Origin: Candidatus Iainarchaeum sp. | GTDB lineage: Archaea; Iainarchaeota; Iainarchaeia; Iainarchaeales; GCA-2688035 | Direction: 5' to 3' | DNA: 16,376 bases | Assembly: GCA_028713935.1 (NCBI GenBank) | Contig: JAQTNI010000032.1 | Coordinates: forward strand, 1 to 16,376 | In this document: positions 3,863 through 14,971 of the stretch, in pieces | Numbering within the stretch: position 1 is the stretch's first letter | How the letters are laid out: every line of letters begins with the position of its first letter | The notes under the pieces: generated by a model | What the model saw: the letters and a program-made list of their open reading frames with translations, nothing else | The model's database searches: none | What the model was told of the DNA's origin: nothing | Program-made: the position numbers and the translations under genes

Positions 3863-3934
3863 AATAGTTTTCCAGTCCCAATCCCTATTTTGAATTCAAT
3901 TTTGCCACGCTTATGTGTGTTTAAAAAAGTAAAA

Positions 3935-4180
3935 CGCAGGGACAGGGATTTGAACCCTGGCTCCCTTTCGGGAACGAGCTAGCTACTGCCCTTTTCTTTT
4001 TCTTTAGGAAAGAAAAAGAAAAGTGTAAGTTGCCCAAAAGAAAAAGAAAAAAATTCCTTTTCATGCGGGCAAAGTGAACTACAAAATTGCAAAGCAATTT
4101 TGTTTCTTTCCCAAGGCTTTCTTTGCTCTGCAAAGAAAGGCTTTAGCAGGCTCGCGCGTTAACCACTCCGCCATCCCTGC
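3935..4180 (-). tRNA. tRNA-Ser(GCU): tRNA-Ser (anticodon GCU), class II, interrupted by a 163-nt intron at the canonical 37/38 position; CCA not encoded
   Basis: Hand-folded from the reverse complement. Acceptor GCAGGGA/TCCCTGC. D arm GCG-GAGTGGTTAA-CGC. Anticodon stem CGAGC/GCTCG with loop CTGCTA|A. Long variable arm TTCCCGAAAGGGAGC. T arm CAGGG-TTCAAAT-CCCTG. Discriminator G. An A/T-rich box lies about 20-30 nt upstream (4200-4212). Confidence 0.9.
3981..4143 (-). other. tRNA-Ser intron (163 nt, junction ambiguous by 1 nt)
   Basis: This is the sequence between A37 and A38 of the folded tRNA. A UAGC segment complementary to anticodon+37 sits next to the 3' junction, as expected for a bulge-helix-bulge substrate. 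The intron contains a perfect 15-bp polypyrimidine/polypurine hairpin (3991-4023) and the repeat module at 4083-4142. Confidence 0.8.
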
Positions 4181-4253
4181 ATGTTATAGTGGCGCTAATT
4201 ATTTTTTTTAAGCAACTAATTTTAATGCTTTGTGGGAAGCAAAAGAGGGGGTT

Positions 4254-9739: not shown

Positions 9740-9772
9740 GCACAAGCTTTTTTGCAAACAAGAAATCAGCAG

Positions 9773-10093
9773 TTACAACTTCATCCTGAAATATTTTTCC
9801 AAGACCTTTTTTTCGCGTTCCATGAATTTTGCAGTTGCCTTGTGTGTTCCGGATGAAAACACAAATTTTACAAGGCAAAGAAGCATTGCGCCATACAAAA
9901 GCAAATCAACAACAACAACCTGCACAGCAAGAGTCCAGTTAAAATTTGCAGGAATCACAGGAGTTCCAGAAACAAAAGGCGACTGCTGCGCAGAGCTTAA
10001 AGCCAAAAAAAACACCAAAGCGCAAACAACCACTGCAACAACAACAAGGCCAGCATATTCAAAAGCAATGCCTTTTCTTTCCTCAATCATCAT
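9773..10093 (-). CDS. Small membrane protein with a possible class III (type IV pilin-like) signal peptide
   Basis: MMIEERKG|IAFEYAGLVVVAVVVCALVFF resembles archaeal prepilin signals (basic residues, then G, then a short polar stretch with E, then a hydrophobic helix). It has a second hydrophobic segment near the C-terminus. The ATG at 10093 is preferred to the TTG at 10138, which would run into the repeat element. Confidence 0.45.
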   Translation of the reverse strand: MMIEERKGIAFEYAGLVVVAVVVCALVFFLALSSAQQSPFVSGTPVIPANFNWTLAVQVVVVDLLLYGAMLLCLVKFVFSSGTHKATAKFMEREKKVLEKYFRMKL

Positions 10094-10135
10094 GCAAAAT
10101 AATTGTTTCTGCCAGTTAATAAGCCTTTTGAAGCG

Positions 10136-10348
10136 CAACTTTTTCGGAGCGCTCGCAAGCTTGCTTTCAAAAAGTTGACAAAAATTTCGCTTTCAAAAGC
10201 CTTGGGAAAAAATAAAAAATTTACGCCTTTTGAAGCCAGCCTTTTCTTAAAAAGAACATTGCAAAACCAAAGGTTTTGCGATGCCTCAAAAAGCATTTGG
10301 CTTTTTAAGGAAGCCTGGGGAAAAGAATTTTTGCTAACACAAAAATGC
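10136..10348 (+). repeat. Composite structured repeat element (leader-type copy 1)
   Basis: 10136-10177 is CAACTTTTTCGGAGCGCTCGCAAGCTTGCTTTCAAAAAGTTG, about 37/43 identical to 14553-14594. Downstream are the hairpin GCAAAACC-aaa-GGTTTTGC (10261-10279), GGCTT..AAGCC, then CTGGGGAAAAGAA and the hairpin ATTTTTG-ctaaca-CAAAAAT (10299-10348). The order matches the 14553-14843 element. Confidence 0.6.
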
Positions 10349-10458
10349 TTCGTAAAACACCCAAAACAAACGGTTTTTATGGCTTTTCAGGGATTTAAAA
10401 CATATCCAATCCCAAAATTTTTATAGTTGAAAGTAACAGTAATTATTATGGTGGTGCC

Positions 10459-10890: not shown

Positions 10891-10901
10891 AAATTATCAA
10901 T

Positions 10902-11137
10902 GCACGGGTAGGGAAGCGGTCAAACCCGCGAGACTCAAGAGGCCTTTTCTTGGCAAGAAAAGCCCTGGGAAAAGAAACTTTTTTCTTTTGGAAAAAAGTG
11001 AAGTTCGCTTCGCTCACAGCTTTTTCTCTAAAGAGAAAAACCTGGGAAAAAGAGGAATTTTTGCTTTGCAAAAATTTTATTTGTTTGAGCTATCTCGTCG
11101 CTTAGTGCGTTCGGCGGTTCGATCCCGCCCCCGTGCA
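10902..11137 (+). tRNA. tRNA-Leu(CAA): tRNA-Leu (anticodon CAA), class II, interrupted by a 152-nt intron at 37/38; CCA not encoded
   Basis: Acceptor GCACGGG/CCCGTGC. D arm GGG-AAGCGGTCAAA-CCC. Anticodon stem CGAGA/TCTCG with loop CTCAAG|A. Variable arm TCGCTTAGTGCGTTC. T arm GGCGG-TTCGATC-CCGCC. Discriminator A. Confidence 0.9.
10940..11091 (+). other. tRNA-Leu intron (152 nt, junction ambiguous by 1 nt)
   Basis: Lies between G37 and A38. A UUUG segment able to pair with CAAG (anticodon+37) sits 4 nt before the 3' junction. Made almost entirely of hairpins: CTTTTCTT-ggc-AAGAAAAG (10944-10962), TTTTTTC-tttt-GGAAAAAA, GAAG-TTCG-CTTC (11000-11011), TTTTTCTCT-aa-AGAGAAAAA (11021-11040), TTTTTGC-ttt-GCAAAAA (11058-11074). 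Confidence 0.8.
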
Positions 11138-11237
11138 ATCTCATTCTGGGATATATACATATCACTTTTTTGGACTGTGTTTTAAGAAGATTTATCTCGC
11201 AACTAATAATTCAACATATCTCATTTTGAAGAAATAG

Positions 11238-12257
11238 TTAGCTTGCTTTTGAAGCTTCAAAAAGACCAGTGTAAATTAAAATATCTTTAAATCCGAAAGA
11301 CTTATTCTGGCAAATAAATGCTGTGTTCTCTTTATTTCTTGTGCATTCGCAATAGTTTAGTGGCGAAATGTTTTGGGTTAGGAAATCCGCAATTAAATCT
11401 TTTGTAATACGTTGTTGTTGAAATTCAAAATAATTTTGGTCATTGGCAATGCTCAATCGAATATTAGTATACTGTTTACTTAAACTATCCCTGTTCGGGT
11501 TCTCGTAAGGTATTTCAAAATAAGAAAATTTTGGGGCTGCAACCTCACAACCGTATTCGCAACGAACATAAGTCTCAGGAAACACTTTGGTTTTTATGAT
11601 TATAATCCCAGTATTTGCTCCAAAATTTCTTTGCGTCAAATCATTATTATCGGCTATTGTTTTTTCAGCATTAGAAATAATTTTAAATTCTCTATTTGTA
11701 CAATCGGCTGTCCCTTCGTCAAAGAACATCGGCAAAGAATATCCAAAGCTAATGATTGTAAAAAGTAAAATCCCGGCGCCCCCTAATATTGCTGCCTGTT
11801 TTTCTTTCTCCTTGCCAATGGCAATATTATAAACTGCAATAGCTGTTAGTCCAAAACAAGCTAAAGCAATAGAAAACACAAAAACAATGGGGCTACCCAA
11901 AACTGCGAGTATTGCCCCGTACGCCAAATTCCAAATAATAAACACGTAAAGTGCCATATCTAGAATAGAGATATTCCCCTTGACTGGGAACAAAAAGTAA
12001 ATAGCAATAAAAAGAACACCAACAACTATTGCGCCTGGCAAATAACCATTGAAGAGAGCCAGACAAAATGCCATAAACAGGGCTACAACAAAACAAGATA
12101 TGCTGACGCCCAATGCAACATATTTTTTATACAAATAACTTGCGGCATAGGAGATTATCTTTTTTAGCATAAAAAAAAGGTCTTTTGCTTTTTGTATAAG
12201 CCAACTTTTTATCTTAAGGATTTTTGAATACAACCTTGAAATCATTCGTGAAGCCAT
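11238..12257 (-). CDS. Hypothetical polytopic membrane protein with a C-terminal Cys-containing soluble domain
   Basis: 339-aa ORF with about 5 hydrophobic helices in the N-terminal 180 aa, followed by a polar domain (CTNREF...VRCEYGCEV...YCECTRNKENTAFIC). A TATA-like box lies 20-33 nt upstream of the ATG. Locally lower GC (about 30%). Confidence 0.65.
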   Translation of the reverse strand: MASRMISRLYSKILKIKSWLIQKAKDLFFMLKKIISYAASYLYKKYVALGVSISCFVVALFMAFCLALFNGYLPGAIVVGVLFIAIYFLFPVKGNISILDMALYVFIIWNLAYGAILAVLGSPIVFVFSIALACFGLTAIAVYNIAIGKEKEKQAAILGGAGILLFTIISFGYSLPMFFDEGTADCTNREFKIISNAEKTIADNNDLTQRNFGANTGIIIIKTKVFPETYVRCEYGCEVAAPKFSYFEIPYENPNRDSLSKQYTNIRLSIANDQNYFEFQQQRITKDLIADFLTQNISPLNYCECTRNKENTAFICQNKSFGFKDILIYTGLFEASKAS

Positions 12258-12410
12258 TTACATATGTCGTTGCTAATAATTTTTTAAGCCCACTCTTCAA
12301 ACAGCCGCATTCTTTATTTTTTCAGTATTTGTTTTCCCTTTTTCTGTAATCTGGTAAATGCGGATTGTTTTTTCTTTTGGTGTGGGCGTTTTGCAGGCGC
12401 TGAAAAATTG

Positions 12411-12440
12411 AATTAAAAAAAATTAAAAAAATTAAAAAAA
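12411..12440 (-). terminator. Three tandem (T7-8 AAT) runs: oligo-T terminator for the 12455-12826 gene
   Basis: The plus strand reads aattaaaaaa aattaaaaaa attaaaaaaa. On the minus strand these are three consecutive T-runs beginning 15 nt after the stop codon. Archaeal termination uses oligo-T tracts. Confidence 0.4.
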
Positions 12441-12454
12441 GAAGAAAGGGCGGG

Positions 12455-12826
12455 TTAAACGAATTTTGTTATTGTTGAATCGTTTTTTCCCACGTATATG
12501 AATGGATACAATCTGGTTCCGCCGATTGTCTGCAATTTGAGGAAATAGTATTGGTTTGGCTTCAGGTCTTGAAAAACCAGTGTGCCGTTTGTAGTGCTAA
12601 CATAGCCCCTTGTTTCACCGCCCCAAAATCCAACTTGTGCATAGAGAGTCCCTACAACATTTCTTGGGTTTCCAAAGCCAGTGACATTAATGCTCAGGCT
12701 GACTTTTTGTGGGGCTTGCGAAAAATTTCCAGTGTTTGTTCCTCTCACACCCCAAGCAAAAGCCGAAGATGAAAAAACAAGCAATGCAAGCAAAGACAGA
12801 GCCAAAAATGCGATTGATTTTTTCAT
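12455..12826 (-). CDS. Small secreted protein (Sec signal peptide; beta-rich)
   Basis: MKKSIAFLALSLLALLVFSSSAFA|WG is a signal peptide with an AxA cleavage site. The SD GGGGTGAT lies 4 nt upstream of the ATG. The mature part is Gly/Thr/Val-rich (...GTLVFQDLKPNQYYFLKLQT...). Confidence 0.65.
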   Translation of the reverse strand: MKKSIAFLALSLLALLVFSSSAFAWGVRGTNTGNFSQAPQKVSLSINVTGFGNPRNVVGTLYAQVGFWGGETRGYVSTTNGTLVFQDLKPNQYYFLKLQTIGGTRLYPFIYVGKNDSTITKFV

Positions 12827-13044
12827 TTAATCACCCCTTTTTAACATTAAACAATTAAGCCAGGAAAATGTTTTTAATTCTTGGTTTCCAATCCAATTTT
12901 TTCAGAATTGGATTTGAAACAGTGCTTATACAAATAGGGCTTTTTTTAATTAAATAACCAAACTTTCTGAAAGGAAAGCTTAAAAGTTTCAGGAAGCTTT
13001 CACAAATAAATTGCTTTTTATGCTTTTCTTTTCTCATTTAATTC

Positions 13045-13185
13045 ATGAATATTGGGGCAATTTTTTTTGTAGCTGGCTTTTTGGTGTCATTGGCTGCAAT
13101 AACCCCGAATTTTTTAATGCTATTGATTGGCTGCGGAGTAATGGCTGCGGGCTTATTGGTAATGCAAACGAACTGGGGTGAATAA
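13045..13185 (+). CDS. 46-aa hydrophobic micro-protein (two predicted TM segments) directly abutting rpl41e
   Basis: Not in the ORF track (shorter than 60 aa). MNIGAIFFVAGFLVSLAAITPNFLMLLIGCGVMAAGLLVMQTNWGE. Its TAA stop is immediately followed by the rpl41e ATG (TAAATG). A TTTTTATG box lies about 29 nt upstream of the ATG. Confidence 0.35.
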   Translation: MNIGAIFFVAGFLVSLAAITPNFLMLLIGCGVMAAGLLVMQTNWGE

Positions 13186-13317
13186 ATGGGCAAGCGGAAA
13201 AGGGATTCCAGCAGATTCAAAAAGACAAGGGCAAGGCAGCGCTGGAAATGGAAAAAGAAAAAGATGCGCAGAAAAAAGCGCAGAAAAAGATACCTGCGGC
13301 AAAGAGCAAGGGCATAA
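13186..13317 (+). CDS. rpl41e: Ribosomal protein L41e (eL41)
   Basis: Not in the ORF track (43 codons). MGKRKRDSSRFKKTRARQRWKWKKKKMRRKKRRKRYLRQRARA. The RWKWKKKKMRRKKRRKR...RQR core matches the eL41 pattern (eukaryotic [25 protein letters not shown]; archaeal homologues carry an N-terminal extension). Confidence 0.75.
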   Translation: MGKRKRDSSRFKKTRARQRWKWKKKKMRRKKRRKRYLRQRARA

Positions 13318-13376
13318 AGGCCTTTTCTTCCCAAGAAAAGCCCTGGGAAAAGAATTTTTTTGCCTTGCAAAAAAAC
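13318..13376 (+). repeat. Repeat-family copy immediately 3' of rpl41e
   Basis: AGGCCTTTTCTTcccAAGAAAAGCCCTGGGAAAAGAA (13318-13354) is 35/37 identical to the 5' end of the tRNA-Leu intron (10940-10976). It is followed by the hairpin TTTTTTTGC-ctt-GCAAAAAAA, as in 11058-11074. Confidence 0.65.
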
Positions 13377-13432
13377 TTTTTATTTTTGCAAACCGCTTTG
13401 TTTTTTCGGTTTGCTTTTTCAATTCTTTTTTT

Positions 13433-14371
13433 TCAAAAGATTTTTGCAATCCAGGTGTAGTACAGGATAATCATGCCTGCTATAAAAAGCAAATTGTGAA
13501 AGTAAAGGATTTTGTACATTTTTTTCATGTCGCTTTCCTGGGGGTTTCTCAGGGCAGGCTTGTAAAGCGGAATTGAAAATAAAGAGAGAAATCCCAATAA
13601 CAAAAATCTGTGGGGCCAGAAACCAAAAAATCGCAGCCCTGGAAGCCATTGCCAGAAAAAACTGTTAGTGCACAACAACAAATAAGCAATTCCGCCTGCA
13701 AGCAAAACAATATAGCAAATCCAGCGCAATTTTCTTTCAGGAAAACAGACAACGCTGCTCTTGTAATTCATCTGCTTGTCATGCTTTGTAGAGCTGACCC
13801 TGTACAATCCATAACCGCCAAACTGCAATCCAAGAATAAAAATCAATGCAAGGATAGGCGCATTGAATGCGGGAACAAACAATGTCCAGCCGGCATAAAA
13901 CCTGAAAACAGGGTTTACTAGCGAGCCTGAAATCAAATCAAGCACTGGCCTTTTTTTGAAATTAAACGGCTTCATTGTGTAAAGAATCTGGTTTACAAGC
14001 ATTATGAAGAGGCAGAGCAGATACAAAAACGAGCCGTTAATAAAAAACCCGATTGCAAGTGCAATTAAAACCAGTGCAATTGAAAAAACCAAAGCAACTT
14101 TTGCAGGCACCCTGCCAGAAGGAATTGCACGCGCTTTTTTAATCGGGTGCAATGCATCTGCTTTCCTGTCAGTATAATCATTAAGCGCATAAAGCCCGCT
14201 CCAGAGCAATGCAATCCCTGCAAAGCCGATTGCAAATTTTATCGGGTCAAGGGCAATTCCAAAAACAATTCCCGCTGTAATTGCTGCAACAACCATGTTT
14301 GCAAAGCTCTTGCTCCATTCCATTGGCCGCATGAGCGAAACAAGGCCCCTGATAAAAACAAAAAAAGACAT
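13433..14371 (-). CDS. UbiA-family membrane prenyltransferase (divergent)
   Basis: Polytopic membrane protein (about 8 hydrophobic helices) with the first Asp-rich motif LNDYTDRKADALHPIKKARAIPSGRV (NDxxDxxxD...RP/IPSG), typical of UbiA/DGGGP-synthase-type enzymes. The second Asp-rich motif is degenerate, so the substrate cannot be assigned. Confidence 0.7.
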   Translation of the reverse strand: MSFFVFIRGLVSLMRPMEWSKSFANMVVAAITAGIVFGIALDPIKFAIGFAGIALLWSGLYALNDYTDRKADALHPIKKARAIPSGRVPAKVALVFSIALVLIALAIGFFINGSFLYLLCLFIMLVNQILYTMKPFNFKKRPVLDLISGSLVNPVFRFYAGWTLFVPAFNAPILALIFILGLQFGGYGLYRVSSTKHDKQMNYKSSVVCFPERKLRWICYIVLLAGGIAYLLLCTNSFFWQWLPGLRFFGFWPHRFLLLGFLSLFSIPLYKPALRNPQESDMKKMYKILYFHNLLFIAGMIILYYTWIAKIF

Positions 14372-14552: not shown

Positions 14553-14843
14553 AAACTTTTTCGGAGCGCTCACAATGTTCGCTTCCAAAAAGTTTGCAAA
14601 AAGTGCGAATTTTACCAGCTTTGCTGGGAGCTTAAAAGCTTTTGAATGAGAAAGAAGCATAGGCTTTGCCTTGTGCTTTTATTATCAAAAATCAAAAGCA
14701 ATTATGGCTCGCAATTGTGAGTGCCAAAGTTTTTTTTGGCATGATGCAGGCTGAAAAAATCGCTTTTCATAGGACATTTGGTTACAAGCTTTTCTTTGAA
14801 AAAGAAAAGTTTGCAAAAGAAAGATTTTTGCCAAAGCAAAAAT
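14553..14843 (+). repeat. Composite structured repeat element (leader-type copy 2) in the 16S rRNA leader
   Basis: 14553-14594 is AAACTTTTTCGGAGCGCTCACAATGTTCGCTTCCAAAAAGTTT, a homologue of 10136-10177. 14786-14843 is AAGCTTTTCTTTgaaAAAGAAAAGTTTGCAAAAGAAAGATTTTTGCcaaaGCAAAAAT, with the same hairpin / A-rich spacer / TTTTTGC-hairpin architecture as the intron modules. Confidence 0.55.
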
Positions 14844-14971
14844 AAAAATTTTTGTTCACGCAAAAATCGAAAAGCAAAATTGTGTAATCCAATTCCAATT
14901 AAGGTTTCCAAAACTCTTTTCAGAAAGAACCATCTGAAAATAAGCGGCTAATTTAAAATTTGAAAAGAGTA

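Follow-up and report, generated by a model that had tools for sequence, protein, structure and literature searches.

Bacterial REP/BIME, BOX and Correia repeats are short, modular, multi-copy hairpins concentrated just behind stop codons and in the spacers of convergent genes; they form part of transcribed 3' untranslated regions (UTRs), sometimes in tandem, and can stabilise the upstream mRNA or terminate transcription. The gain and movement of archaeal tRNA introns is an open question. In the Thermoproteales, near-identical introns occur in tRNA genes of different identity within the clade (Fujishima et al. 2010, as summarised in PMC4090602), and intron transposition, by an unknown mechanism, has been inferred for them in the outline given there (PMC4090602). 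Eukaryotic introner elements are outlined in PMC11282704 as transposon-derived introns. Here, we analysed a stretch of 16,376 nucleotides from Candidatus Iainarchaeum sp. (contig JAQTNI010000032.1, forward strand; hereafter the window), in which the segment behind rpl41e, the gene for ribosomal protein eL41, resembles the beginning of a tRNA-Leu intron. With slightly better than even confidence in the explanation as a whole, sequence comparison leads us to read 13318-13387 as one copy, of the box-less form, of a structured, multi-copy module specific to an Iainarchaeial clade of the DPANN archaea.

The rpl41e segment and the AAGCC-clamp module family

An earlier note on this DNA, made from the letters alone, had matched the segment to the tRNA-Leu intron, and the match was confirmed: 13318-13354 and 10940-10976, the first 37 nt of the intron, are identical at 35 of 37 positions, and 0 of 200 dinucleotide-preserving shuffles gave any match. 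Both mismatches lie in a hairpin loop (CCC vs GGC). The similarity begins, as the note had it, on the base directly after the rpl41e stop codon (TAA 13315-13317, similarity from 13318, zero spacer), and the later hairpin and tail are indeed collinear with the intron, 13355-13395 aligning to 11050-11095 (TTTTTGC(C/T)TTGCAAAAA ... TTTTATTT; local score 18, reached by 0 of 1000 shuffles). A resemblance to the exon-intron junction of tRNA-Ser was also correctly seen: the intron of tRNA-Ser(GCU) opens with the same motif, AAGCC, after ...CTGCTA.

Copies of the module were collected from syntenic loci of relatives (given here by L numbers) and from one scan of species-representative genomes, yielding 16 full copies. 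These share one layout: a hairpin (P1) with the closing strands AAGCC...GCCUU, in which a C.C mismatch is conserved; the tract (Y)UGGGAAA(G)AAA (J); a second hairpin (P2) of variable sequence in which the pairing is kept; and a box, GTTCGCTTCGCTCACA. Membership of the rpl41e segment in this family is established by a covariance model (R1) built from 16 other copies, which found it at 13318-13396 with 49.1 bits (E = 3e-9) and also recovered the L002 orthologue (39 bits) and the L003 Leu intron (55 bits). In the window, the tRNA-Leu intron holds a first module with box at 10940-11020 (83 bits, covariance model) and a second, box-less unit at 11018-11091, the tRNA-Ser intron holds a module at 4143-4062 (79 bits, covariance model), and one further copy lies near 10300.

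The helices are borne out by covariation. In alignment A1, 92% of the helix cells are paired and nine pairs change on both sides, a result that none of 500 shuffles attained; covariation scores 0.261, as against at most 0.095 with the partners slid. The closing pair nt2:nt30 is A:U in 100, G:C in 13, G:U in three and A:C in none of 117 copies, and the rpl41e copy carries the covarying G2-C30 variant. The mirror run between J and P1 measures 6.47, as against 5.42 ± 0.08 for permuted partners (0/500 permutations reach it). J can pair with the 5' strand of P1, and in short introns that pairing forms the inner helix of the bulge-helix-bulge (BHB). As the J core and the box were fixed by the search patterns, their invariance is partly by construction. 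A purine-motif triple helix of J and P1, which would fit the mirror symmetry, was rejected; RNA strands are disfavoured in such triplexes, and in short introns J simply pairs with the P1 5' strand. A K-turn was ruled out by the Watson-Crick covariation of the closing pairs.

In the rpl41e copy, P1 is a 12-bp clamp hairpin with ends AGGCC...GCCCU, conforming to the family clamp A(A/G)GCC...GCCYU with its C.C mismatch at position 4. The outer pairs A13318-U13344, G13319-C13343 and G13320-C13342 are followed by the mismatch 13321/13341, the pair C13322-G13340 and the arms UUUUCUU/AAGAAAA around the loop CCC (13330-32). The GGGAAA tract mirroring the P1 3' strand and the subsequent P2 span 13345-13375. 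The 3' box GTTCGCTTCGCTCACA(TT) is absent; P2 is followed by CTTTTTATTTTTGCAAACCG, and the T-rich tail occupies the place of the box. The copy is thereby of the box-less subtype, as are L013 165-108 and most copies in a metagenome scan. It had been suggested that the segment is the Leu intron with its centre deleted; the collinearity behind this suggestion stands, but the rpl41e copy is better described as one plain P1-J-P2 unit. The L003 Leu intron has the same single-unit layout, with a P2 of T6GC...GCA6.

A context census was made of 123 unique P1+J cores, with stop-codon context counted for open reading frames (ORFs) of at least 50 codons only. Exactly at the 5' ends of tRNA introns lie 24 cores, in tRNAs of about a dozen anticodons as ARAGORN calls them, and six lie deeper within tRNA introns. 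Stop codons account for 25, of which 17 fall within -2 to +2 nt; in nine of the stop-codon copies, P1 begins with two pairs made by the AA of TAA. Five cores come immediately behind a tRNA 3' end, 17 belong to tandem arrays and 46 are elsewhere, the last class including both rpl41e copies because the rpl41e ORF is shorter than 50 codons. One copy in L003 follows tRNA-Ala in the 16S-23S spacer. All copies in tRNA introns are at position 37/38, and these introns differ in their 3' parts, orthologous Ser introns included. The module is a general unit, found about as often at stop codons and behind tRNAs as within introns. Of the view that an intron-type element had come to lie outside a tRNA, the homology to tRNA-intron sequence is retained, and the notion of a stray intron is given up for this reason.

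With a stringent pattern, the module was found in four Iainarchaeum metagenome-assembled genomes (MAGs) only, with eight copies in one of them. Modules identical at 77 of 81 positions stand behind unrelated ORFs of different MAGs; exchange or spread is therefore a general property of the family. We found no description of the AAGCC-clamp module in the literature. A search of the whole window against Rfam (E <= 1) gave nothing at the module, neither C/D nor H/ACA RNA, ribozyme, riboswitch or IS605-associated RNA, and no C/D box or pseudouridylation pocket was apparent by eye. A guide or antisense role was rejected, as the complementarity of J or the box to 16S/23S rRNA extends to at most 8-9 nt, which is chance level. 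In several copies, a TATA-like A/T-rich stretch follows the box, with a gene start 28-50 nt further on; a promoter role was rejected since compaction leads one to expect such an arrangement and the copies in introns lack it. With respect to the long ORFs nearby, 17 copies are on the same and 16 on the opposite strand, thus without a clear bias, in a count based on crude gene calls and confounded by many small ORFs.

Several observations concern the build of individual copies. Nested hairpins of 50-60 nt lie within the P1 loop in L002 825-746 (the rpl41e tail) and L090 1786-1899, with clamp and purine tract intact. P1-J-P2 units repeat in tandem, 3-6 to an array and about every 50-59 nt, in L120 (minus strand, 78-420), L057 (6739-6880), L047 (minus strand, 1179-1320) and L093 (13118-13800); the P1 and P2 stems change per unit, with AAGCC and GCCTTGGGAAA constant. 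In the window, the ~700 nt at 9740-10458 are dense with hairpin units and contain only doubtful low-complexity ORFs; module-like cores are located at 10121-10212 and 10298-10365, the stretch 10137-10173 recurs at 81% identity in the 16S leader (14554-14590), and an Rfam search of 9740-10458 returned no family match.

For the BHB test, every bulge start from 13305 to 13325 was scanned in strict and relaxed forms; as a positive control, the scanner recovered the true BHBs of tRNA-Leu (h=6, H=4, h'=3) and tRNA-Ser. This exhaustive scan found no pair of 3-nt bulges with a 4-bp helix at the rpl41e site. For the register-equivalent bulge 13316-13318, the helix partner ATGC occurs nowhere in the element, and the only partners of GCAU, at 13473-76 and 13527-30, are within the UbiA coding sequence, with outer helices of 2-3 bp including G.U. 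No GGCCU was found to pair with the AGGCC after rpl41e; short family introns (L038, L027) close the inner helix by A(A/G)GCC with GGCUU. The region was also folded together with the end of rpl41e (13286-13440), as the note had proposed: the predicted minimum-free-energy fold consists of three separate local hairpins, and no BHB formed. Because no strict or relaxed BHB can form, BHB-type excision is not supported, and the proposal of a BHB-processed mRNA 3' end fails for want of a helix partner, a GGCCU and a suitable fold. Judged by these models, the rpl41e segment is not an intron and would not be cut out by the tRNA splicing endonuclease.

Probable gain at rpl41e and exchange with the tRNA-Leu intron

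The order of small ORF, rpl41e and ubiA is kept among relatives, the spacer is not. In L002, with a UbiA protein 90% identical to that of the window, the module is present in the rpl41e tail, with 55 nt of extra hairpins inside the P1 loop. It is absent from L003 (UbiA 70%) and L024 (71%), where the tail holds only the terminal hairpin and T-runs, from L147 (59%), where the spacer measures 14 nt, and from L146 (57%), where the tail holds ~220 nt of an unrelated tandem repeat (4150-3930, minus strand, with units like AAGAGCTAAATGCTTTTGAGC); a different repeat has therefore accumulated in this convergent spacer. L003 and L024 are 68% identical, about as distant from each other as from the window, which makes a single gain in the lineage of the window and L002 the simplest reading. 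On this thinly sampled synteny comparison, which the note had called for, the rpl41e copy would have been gained in the common ancestor of these two genomes.

Since then, the copy has been strongly constrained. Outside the loop, the modules of the window and L002 differ at 1 of 67 positions, compared with 82 of 226 third codon positions in ubiA and 17 of 47 in the small ORF (36%; binomial P = 4e-12). The terminal hairpin downstream is more diverged than the module.

The module of the window's tRNA-Leu intron is closer to a non-orthologous copy than to its orthologues. It matches the rpl41e copy of the window at 35/37 positions (95%) and that of L002 at 33/37, compared with 29/41 for the Leu intron of L002 and 31/41 for that of L003 (71-76%); the latter two match each other at 35/41. 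The Leu module being nearer to the rpl41e copy than to the orthologous Leu introns, we conclude that sequence was exchanged within the genome, and of the two options that the earlier note had offered, mobility is thereby the one upheld. Rpl41e-type sequence at the rpl41e site of two genomes and Leu-type sequence at the Leu site of two make overwriting of the window's Leu intron the simplest account, and the recent transfer was probably directed from the 3' UTR to the intron.

As a mechanism, we propose that dispersed module copies exchange sequence within a genome, which would account for the near-identity of the rpl41e tail and the Leu intron, and that the window's Leu intron most likely had its 5' module replaced by rpl41e-type sequence. 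In L002 (1148-1446) and L003 (7777-8101), tRNA-Leu lies directly upstream of the small-ORF/rpl41e operon, its intron only some hundreds of bases distant, a closeness that would be favourable to local conversion; the window now has 1.9 kb between tRNA-Leu and the small ORF.

A wider proposal, which we put forward as speculative and rather doubtful, is that the module is a unit that builds and reshapes archaeal tRNA introns in this lineage, moving among mRNA tails, tRNA trailers, rRNA spacers, the spacer of a permuted tRNA and introns by gene conversion or an unknown insertion process, and that its 5' edge may serve as a common boundary signal for one processing factor. If true, this would be the first concrete donor-recipient system in which the spread of archaeal tRNA introns can be studied. 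One structured module is common to the introns of many isoacceptors and to non-tRNA sites, and the rpl41e/tRNA-Leu pair points to a recent exchange, probably a directional one. Complete genomes and metatranscriptomes make the process testable.

Proposed role of the rpl41e copy and competing explanations

The spacer between rpl41e and the convergent ubiA gene comprises 115 nt. The U7 and A7 arms of P2 give a T7 run on each DNA strand, on the sense strand at 13355-61 and, as the complement of A7 (13369-75), on the strand of ubiA. After the rpl41e stop, T7 is followed by T5 (13377-81), T5 (13383-87), T5 (13415-19) and T8 (13426-33), thus runs of at least five T on the sense strand soon after the stop, as in oligo-T terminators. 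The terminal hairpin and T-runs that the note had placed between convergent genes were found at 13388-13414, with T5 and T8 and with the UbiA ORF ending at 13433. Equivalent hairpins with T-runs occur in L002, L003 and L024, loci without the module included.

The module would be transcribed as the first ~70 nt of the 3' UTR of the small-ORF/rpl41e mRNA, under strong sequence constraint, with P1 as a stable terminal hairpin of the mRNA that starts at the stop codon. The U7/A7 arms of P2, the later T-runs and the older hairpin would terminate transcription of both convergent genes, rpl41e and ubiA. Because it is constrained, the copy is probably not inert; because it sits in the slot between a stop codon and a convergent gene, with T7 on each strand and T5, T5, T5 and T8 behind, it is likely to be a conserved 3' UTR structure with P2 as a candidate bidirectional oligo-T terminator.

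Several points weigh against this explanation. The folding energy of 13286-13440 is ordinary for its composition (z = -0.30), which leaves family covariation as the sole support for the structure. Few lineages, all about equally distant, bear on whether the module was gained or lost at the rpl41e site. Other copies have P2 arms that are not rich in T, and no T-runs come after full copies; together with the sites in introns and rRNA spacers, this means that termination cannot be what the family does in general. The tRNA-Leu intron itself contains T5-T6 runs, and oligo-T alone may therefore terminate inefficiently in this organism. That the module abuts so closely on stops, tRNA ends and splice sites may point to a processing function common to these sites, which the favoured explanation does not cover.

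A first alternative, which we regard as improbable, sees in the module a general boundary signal that acts in cis. A trans-acting factor, be it an RNA-binding protein or an endonuclease, perhaps an EndA of broad specificity, would recognise the P1 clamp with its C.C mismatch and the UUGGGAAA tract, and cut or protect exactly at the P1 5' edge. It would thereby set the 3' ends of tRNAs and mRNAs, the 5' ends of introns and the cuts in rRNA spacers, with the mRNA 3' end of rpl41e placed at the stop codon. The exactness of the 5' edge to the nucleotide at 24 intron 5' splice sites, at five or more tRNA 3' ends and at 17 stop codons (+/-2 nt) would suit such a shared RNA-boundary signal in streamlined DPANN genomes, as would the strong constraint on the rpl41e copy and the conservation of single-stranded motifs and C.C mismatch next to covarying helices, a pattern typical of protein-recognised RNA; DPANN EndAs, moreover, have an insertion tied to a broad substrate range (PMC5829648). 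Non-intron copies, however, are without helix-bulge geometry of any kind, and in the nine genes whose stop-codon AA belongs to P1 a cut at the 5' edge would remove the stop. In addition, the search patterns themselves account for part of the conservation seen in the J core, the 46 copies elsewhere and the 17 in tandem have other contexts, and the orientation to long ORFs is not uniformly sense.

A second alternative, to which we accord a similarly low probability, treats the module as a selfish, non-autonomous mobile or duplicative DNA element like REP/BIME, BOX or a miniature inverted-repeat transposable element (MITE), whose hairpins serve its own spread only and which has no role at rpl41e, accumulating where a gene-dense genome tolerates it: in introns, in spacers and at 3' ends between convergent genes. 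The module does form a dispersed, multi-copy intergenic family in the manner of REP/RAYT-like repeats or MITEs; its restriction to one clade with up to eight copies per MAG, the 77/81-identical modules behind unrelated ORFs, the tandem arrays, the copies nested in P1 loops, the presence or absence at the rpl41e site and the different repeat in the same spacer of L146 are all compatible with it. Yet the rpl41e copy is far more conserved than synonymous sites, random insertion cannot explain the precise abutment to stop codons, and no terminal inverted repeats or consistent target-site duplications are present: among 12 full copies, no MITE signature was detected, although CACAT(T)TAA recurs in four. 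An IS200/RAYT link was likewise rejected, as the GC-rich hairpins on either side of the one Y1 transposase gene seen bear no relation to the module. An origin from viruses was rejected as well, since none of four IMG/VR pattern matches was confirmed by the covariance model and viral contigs thus gave no true copy. The Y1 transposase gene (PF01797) encodes a stand-alone protein of 153 aa at L003 10873-11334 and occurs also at L008 5933-6394. A LAGLIDADG_3 ORF at L006 5731-6426 lies in the rRNA-operon region of one population variant of the L003 species; L003 and L004 had no such call, which suggests that an rRNA gene carries a homing-endonuclease intron in some variants only.

The weakest alternative, that a BHB-type intron-like element is excised from the rpl41e transcript or used by the splicing endonuclease to cleave it, can appeal to known BHB processing of archaeal mRNAs and rRNAs (PMC5829648), to a similarity starting exactly at intron base 1 and to an upstream TAA|AG like the tRNA-Ser junction, but is close to refuted on present evidence, there being no central 4-bp helix partner, second bulge or outer helix in or near the element, no GGCCU for an inner helix, a fold of three independent hairpins and nothing downstream in need of rejoining.

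Genomic setting and relation to known systems

The window is archaeal, has a G+C content of 40% and carries a 16S rRNA gene from 14972 onward; the homologues of its UbiA protein are named Candidatus Iainarchaeum or Diapherotrites, thus belonging to the DPANN lineage. The features discussed are collected in Table 1.

Table 1. Location of the rpl41e copy, its parts and the features around it in the window
Feature	Position	Strand	Basis
tRNA-Ser(GCU), intron ~163 nt	3934..4181	-	Rfam and ARAGORN with introns allowed
tRNA-Leu(CAA), 152-nt intron 10940-11091 at canonical 37/38	10901..11138	+	BHB scan and ARAGORN with introns allowed
Transmembrane-like ORF, 46 codons, first cistron with rpl41e	13045..13185	+	adjoins rpl41e in L002, L003, L024
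rpl41e (eL41), 43 codons	13186..13317	+	translation and phmmer
P1 clamp hairpin	13318..13344	+	match to Leu intron, covariance model, family covariation, fold
J, conserved purine tract GGGAAAAGAA, single-stranded	13345..13354	+	mirrors P1 3' strand; complementary to CUUUUC of P1 5' strand
P2 hairpin UUUUUUUGC-CUU-GCAAAAAAA	13355..13375	+	fold; covarying helix in family; identical in L002
T-rich tail CTTTTTATTTTT	13376..13387	+	collinear with TTTTATTT at Leu intron end; identical in L002
Older terminal hairpin GCAAACCG-(11 nt)-CGGTTTGC, then T5 and T8 runs	13388..13433	+	fold
UbiA-family prenyltransferase gene, convergent	13433..14371	-	Pfam PF01040, E = 1.9e-26
Diverged module copy in 16S rRNA leader, repeat family D1	14786..14862	+	R1, 33.8 bits, E ~1e-5

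The rpl41e ORF matches the eL41 chains of solved ribosomes with E = 7e-6 (phmmer against the PDB); a Pfam search of its 43 codons gave no match. For the 46-codon ORF, differences between the window and L002 are distributed 6/0/17 over the three codon positions, a coding pattern. Between tRNA-Leu and this small ORF (10901-13045), the window has three minus-strand ORFs, 11238-12257, 12455-12826 and 12855-13037, for which a Pfam search returned no match. A long, perfect A/T-rich palindrome, GTCTTTTTTTGGAAAAAAAATTTTT ... AAAAATTCTTTTTCCTGAAAAAAGAG, lies at 2795-2849 in or beside a VTT-domain ORF; in Rfam, it gave only a chance microRNA-like match.

With default settings, ARAGORN reported zero tRNAs in the window, and both were found once long introns were allowed. 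The Rfam tRNA model found tRNA-Ser only, at 38.8 bits, and missed tRNA-Leu. As default ARAGORN and Rfam at its gathering threshold missed or nearly missed both tRNAs because of their long introns, the tRNAs of the Iainarchaeial clade are probably under-counted in genome annotations: long, module-bearing introns make standard tRNA finders overlook genes.

The tRNA-Ser intron contains a second conserved block at ~4035-3984 (minus strand), here called module B, made up of GGGCAACTTACAC, a hairpin and GGGCAG. As TTTTGGGCAACTTACAC with a pyrimidine/purine hairpin and GGGCAG, it closes this intron and is seen also in L022 (3342-, 5957-); the orthologous Ser introns of L002 and L003 are without it. 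At L022 5957-, it sits directly before the 5' end of what looks like a circularly permuted tRNA-Gln(UUG) at L022 5790-6050 (JAFGEM010000125.1, Candidatus Iainarchaeum MAG Zod_Metabat.1228), in the order 3' half, ~200 nt spacer with the module and module B, and 5' half. Leader and trailer, CCTGAATGAG / CTCATTCAGG, are complementary over 9-10 bp and form a full BHB at 37/38, and the rejoined halves are called tRNA-Gln by ARAGORN. The only permuted tRNAs of archaea known to us are from Thermofilum. PMC3218864 describes these, in outline.

Set beside the described systems, the rpl41e copy shares with BHB introns and sites outside tRNAs (cbf5 pre-mRNA, pre-rRNA; PMC5829648) an archaeal, intron-related sequence tied to an mRNA; unlike them, it has neither the bulge-helix-bulge that defines such sites nor exons that would have to be joined. 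It resembles archaeal oligo-T intrinsic terminators in its T7, T5, T5, T5 and T8 after the stop, where relatives without the module have T12 or T8. Unlike these terminators, which need no conserved upstream structure, it has P1 and J of conserved sequence, and these recur where termination would be harmful, in introns and rRNA spacers. As in the REP/BIME, BOX and Correia repeats, the module is short, multi-copy and hairpin-forming and lies after stops and between convergent genes; it differs from them in that no RAYT-type or other transposase is linked to it, in its C.C mismatch and purine tract mirroring P1, in its occurrence in tRNA introns and a permuted-tRNA spacer, and in its archaeal host.

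The transposed tRNA introns of the Thermoproteales are matched by an implied DNA-level spread of intron sequence by an unknown mechanism, and by highly similar introns in non-orthologous tRNA genes, here of about a dozen anticodons and with the window's Leu module closer to non-orthologous copies. The similarity does not extend over whole introns or to non-canonical positions: only the 5' module is shared, intron 3' ends are tRNA-specific and all copies are at the canonical 37/38. The module is also about equally common outside tRNAs, at stop codons and in tRNA trailers and rRNA spacers, and its host belongs to the DPANN and not to the Crenarchaeota. Introner elements, in the outline of PMC11282704, are spliced by the spliceosome, whereas the module is without complete splice signals of its own, because the 3' half of the BHB is specific to each tRNA; like them, as outlined there, it is one repeat family found both as introns and as ordinary intergenic copies.

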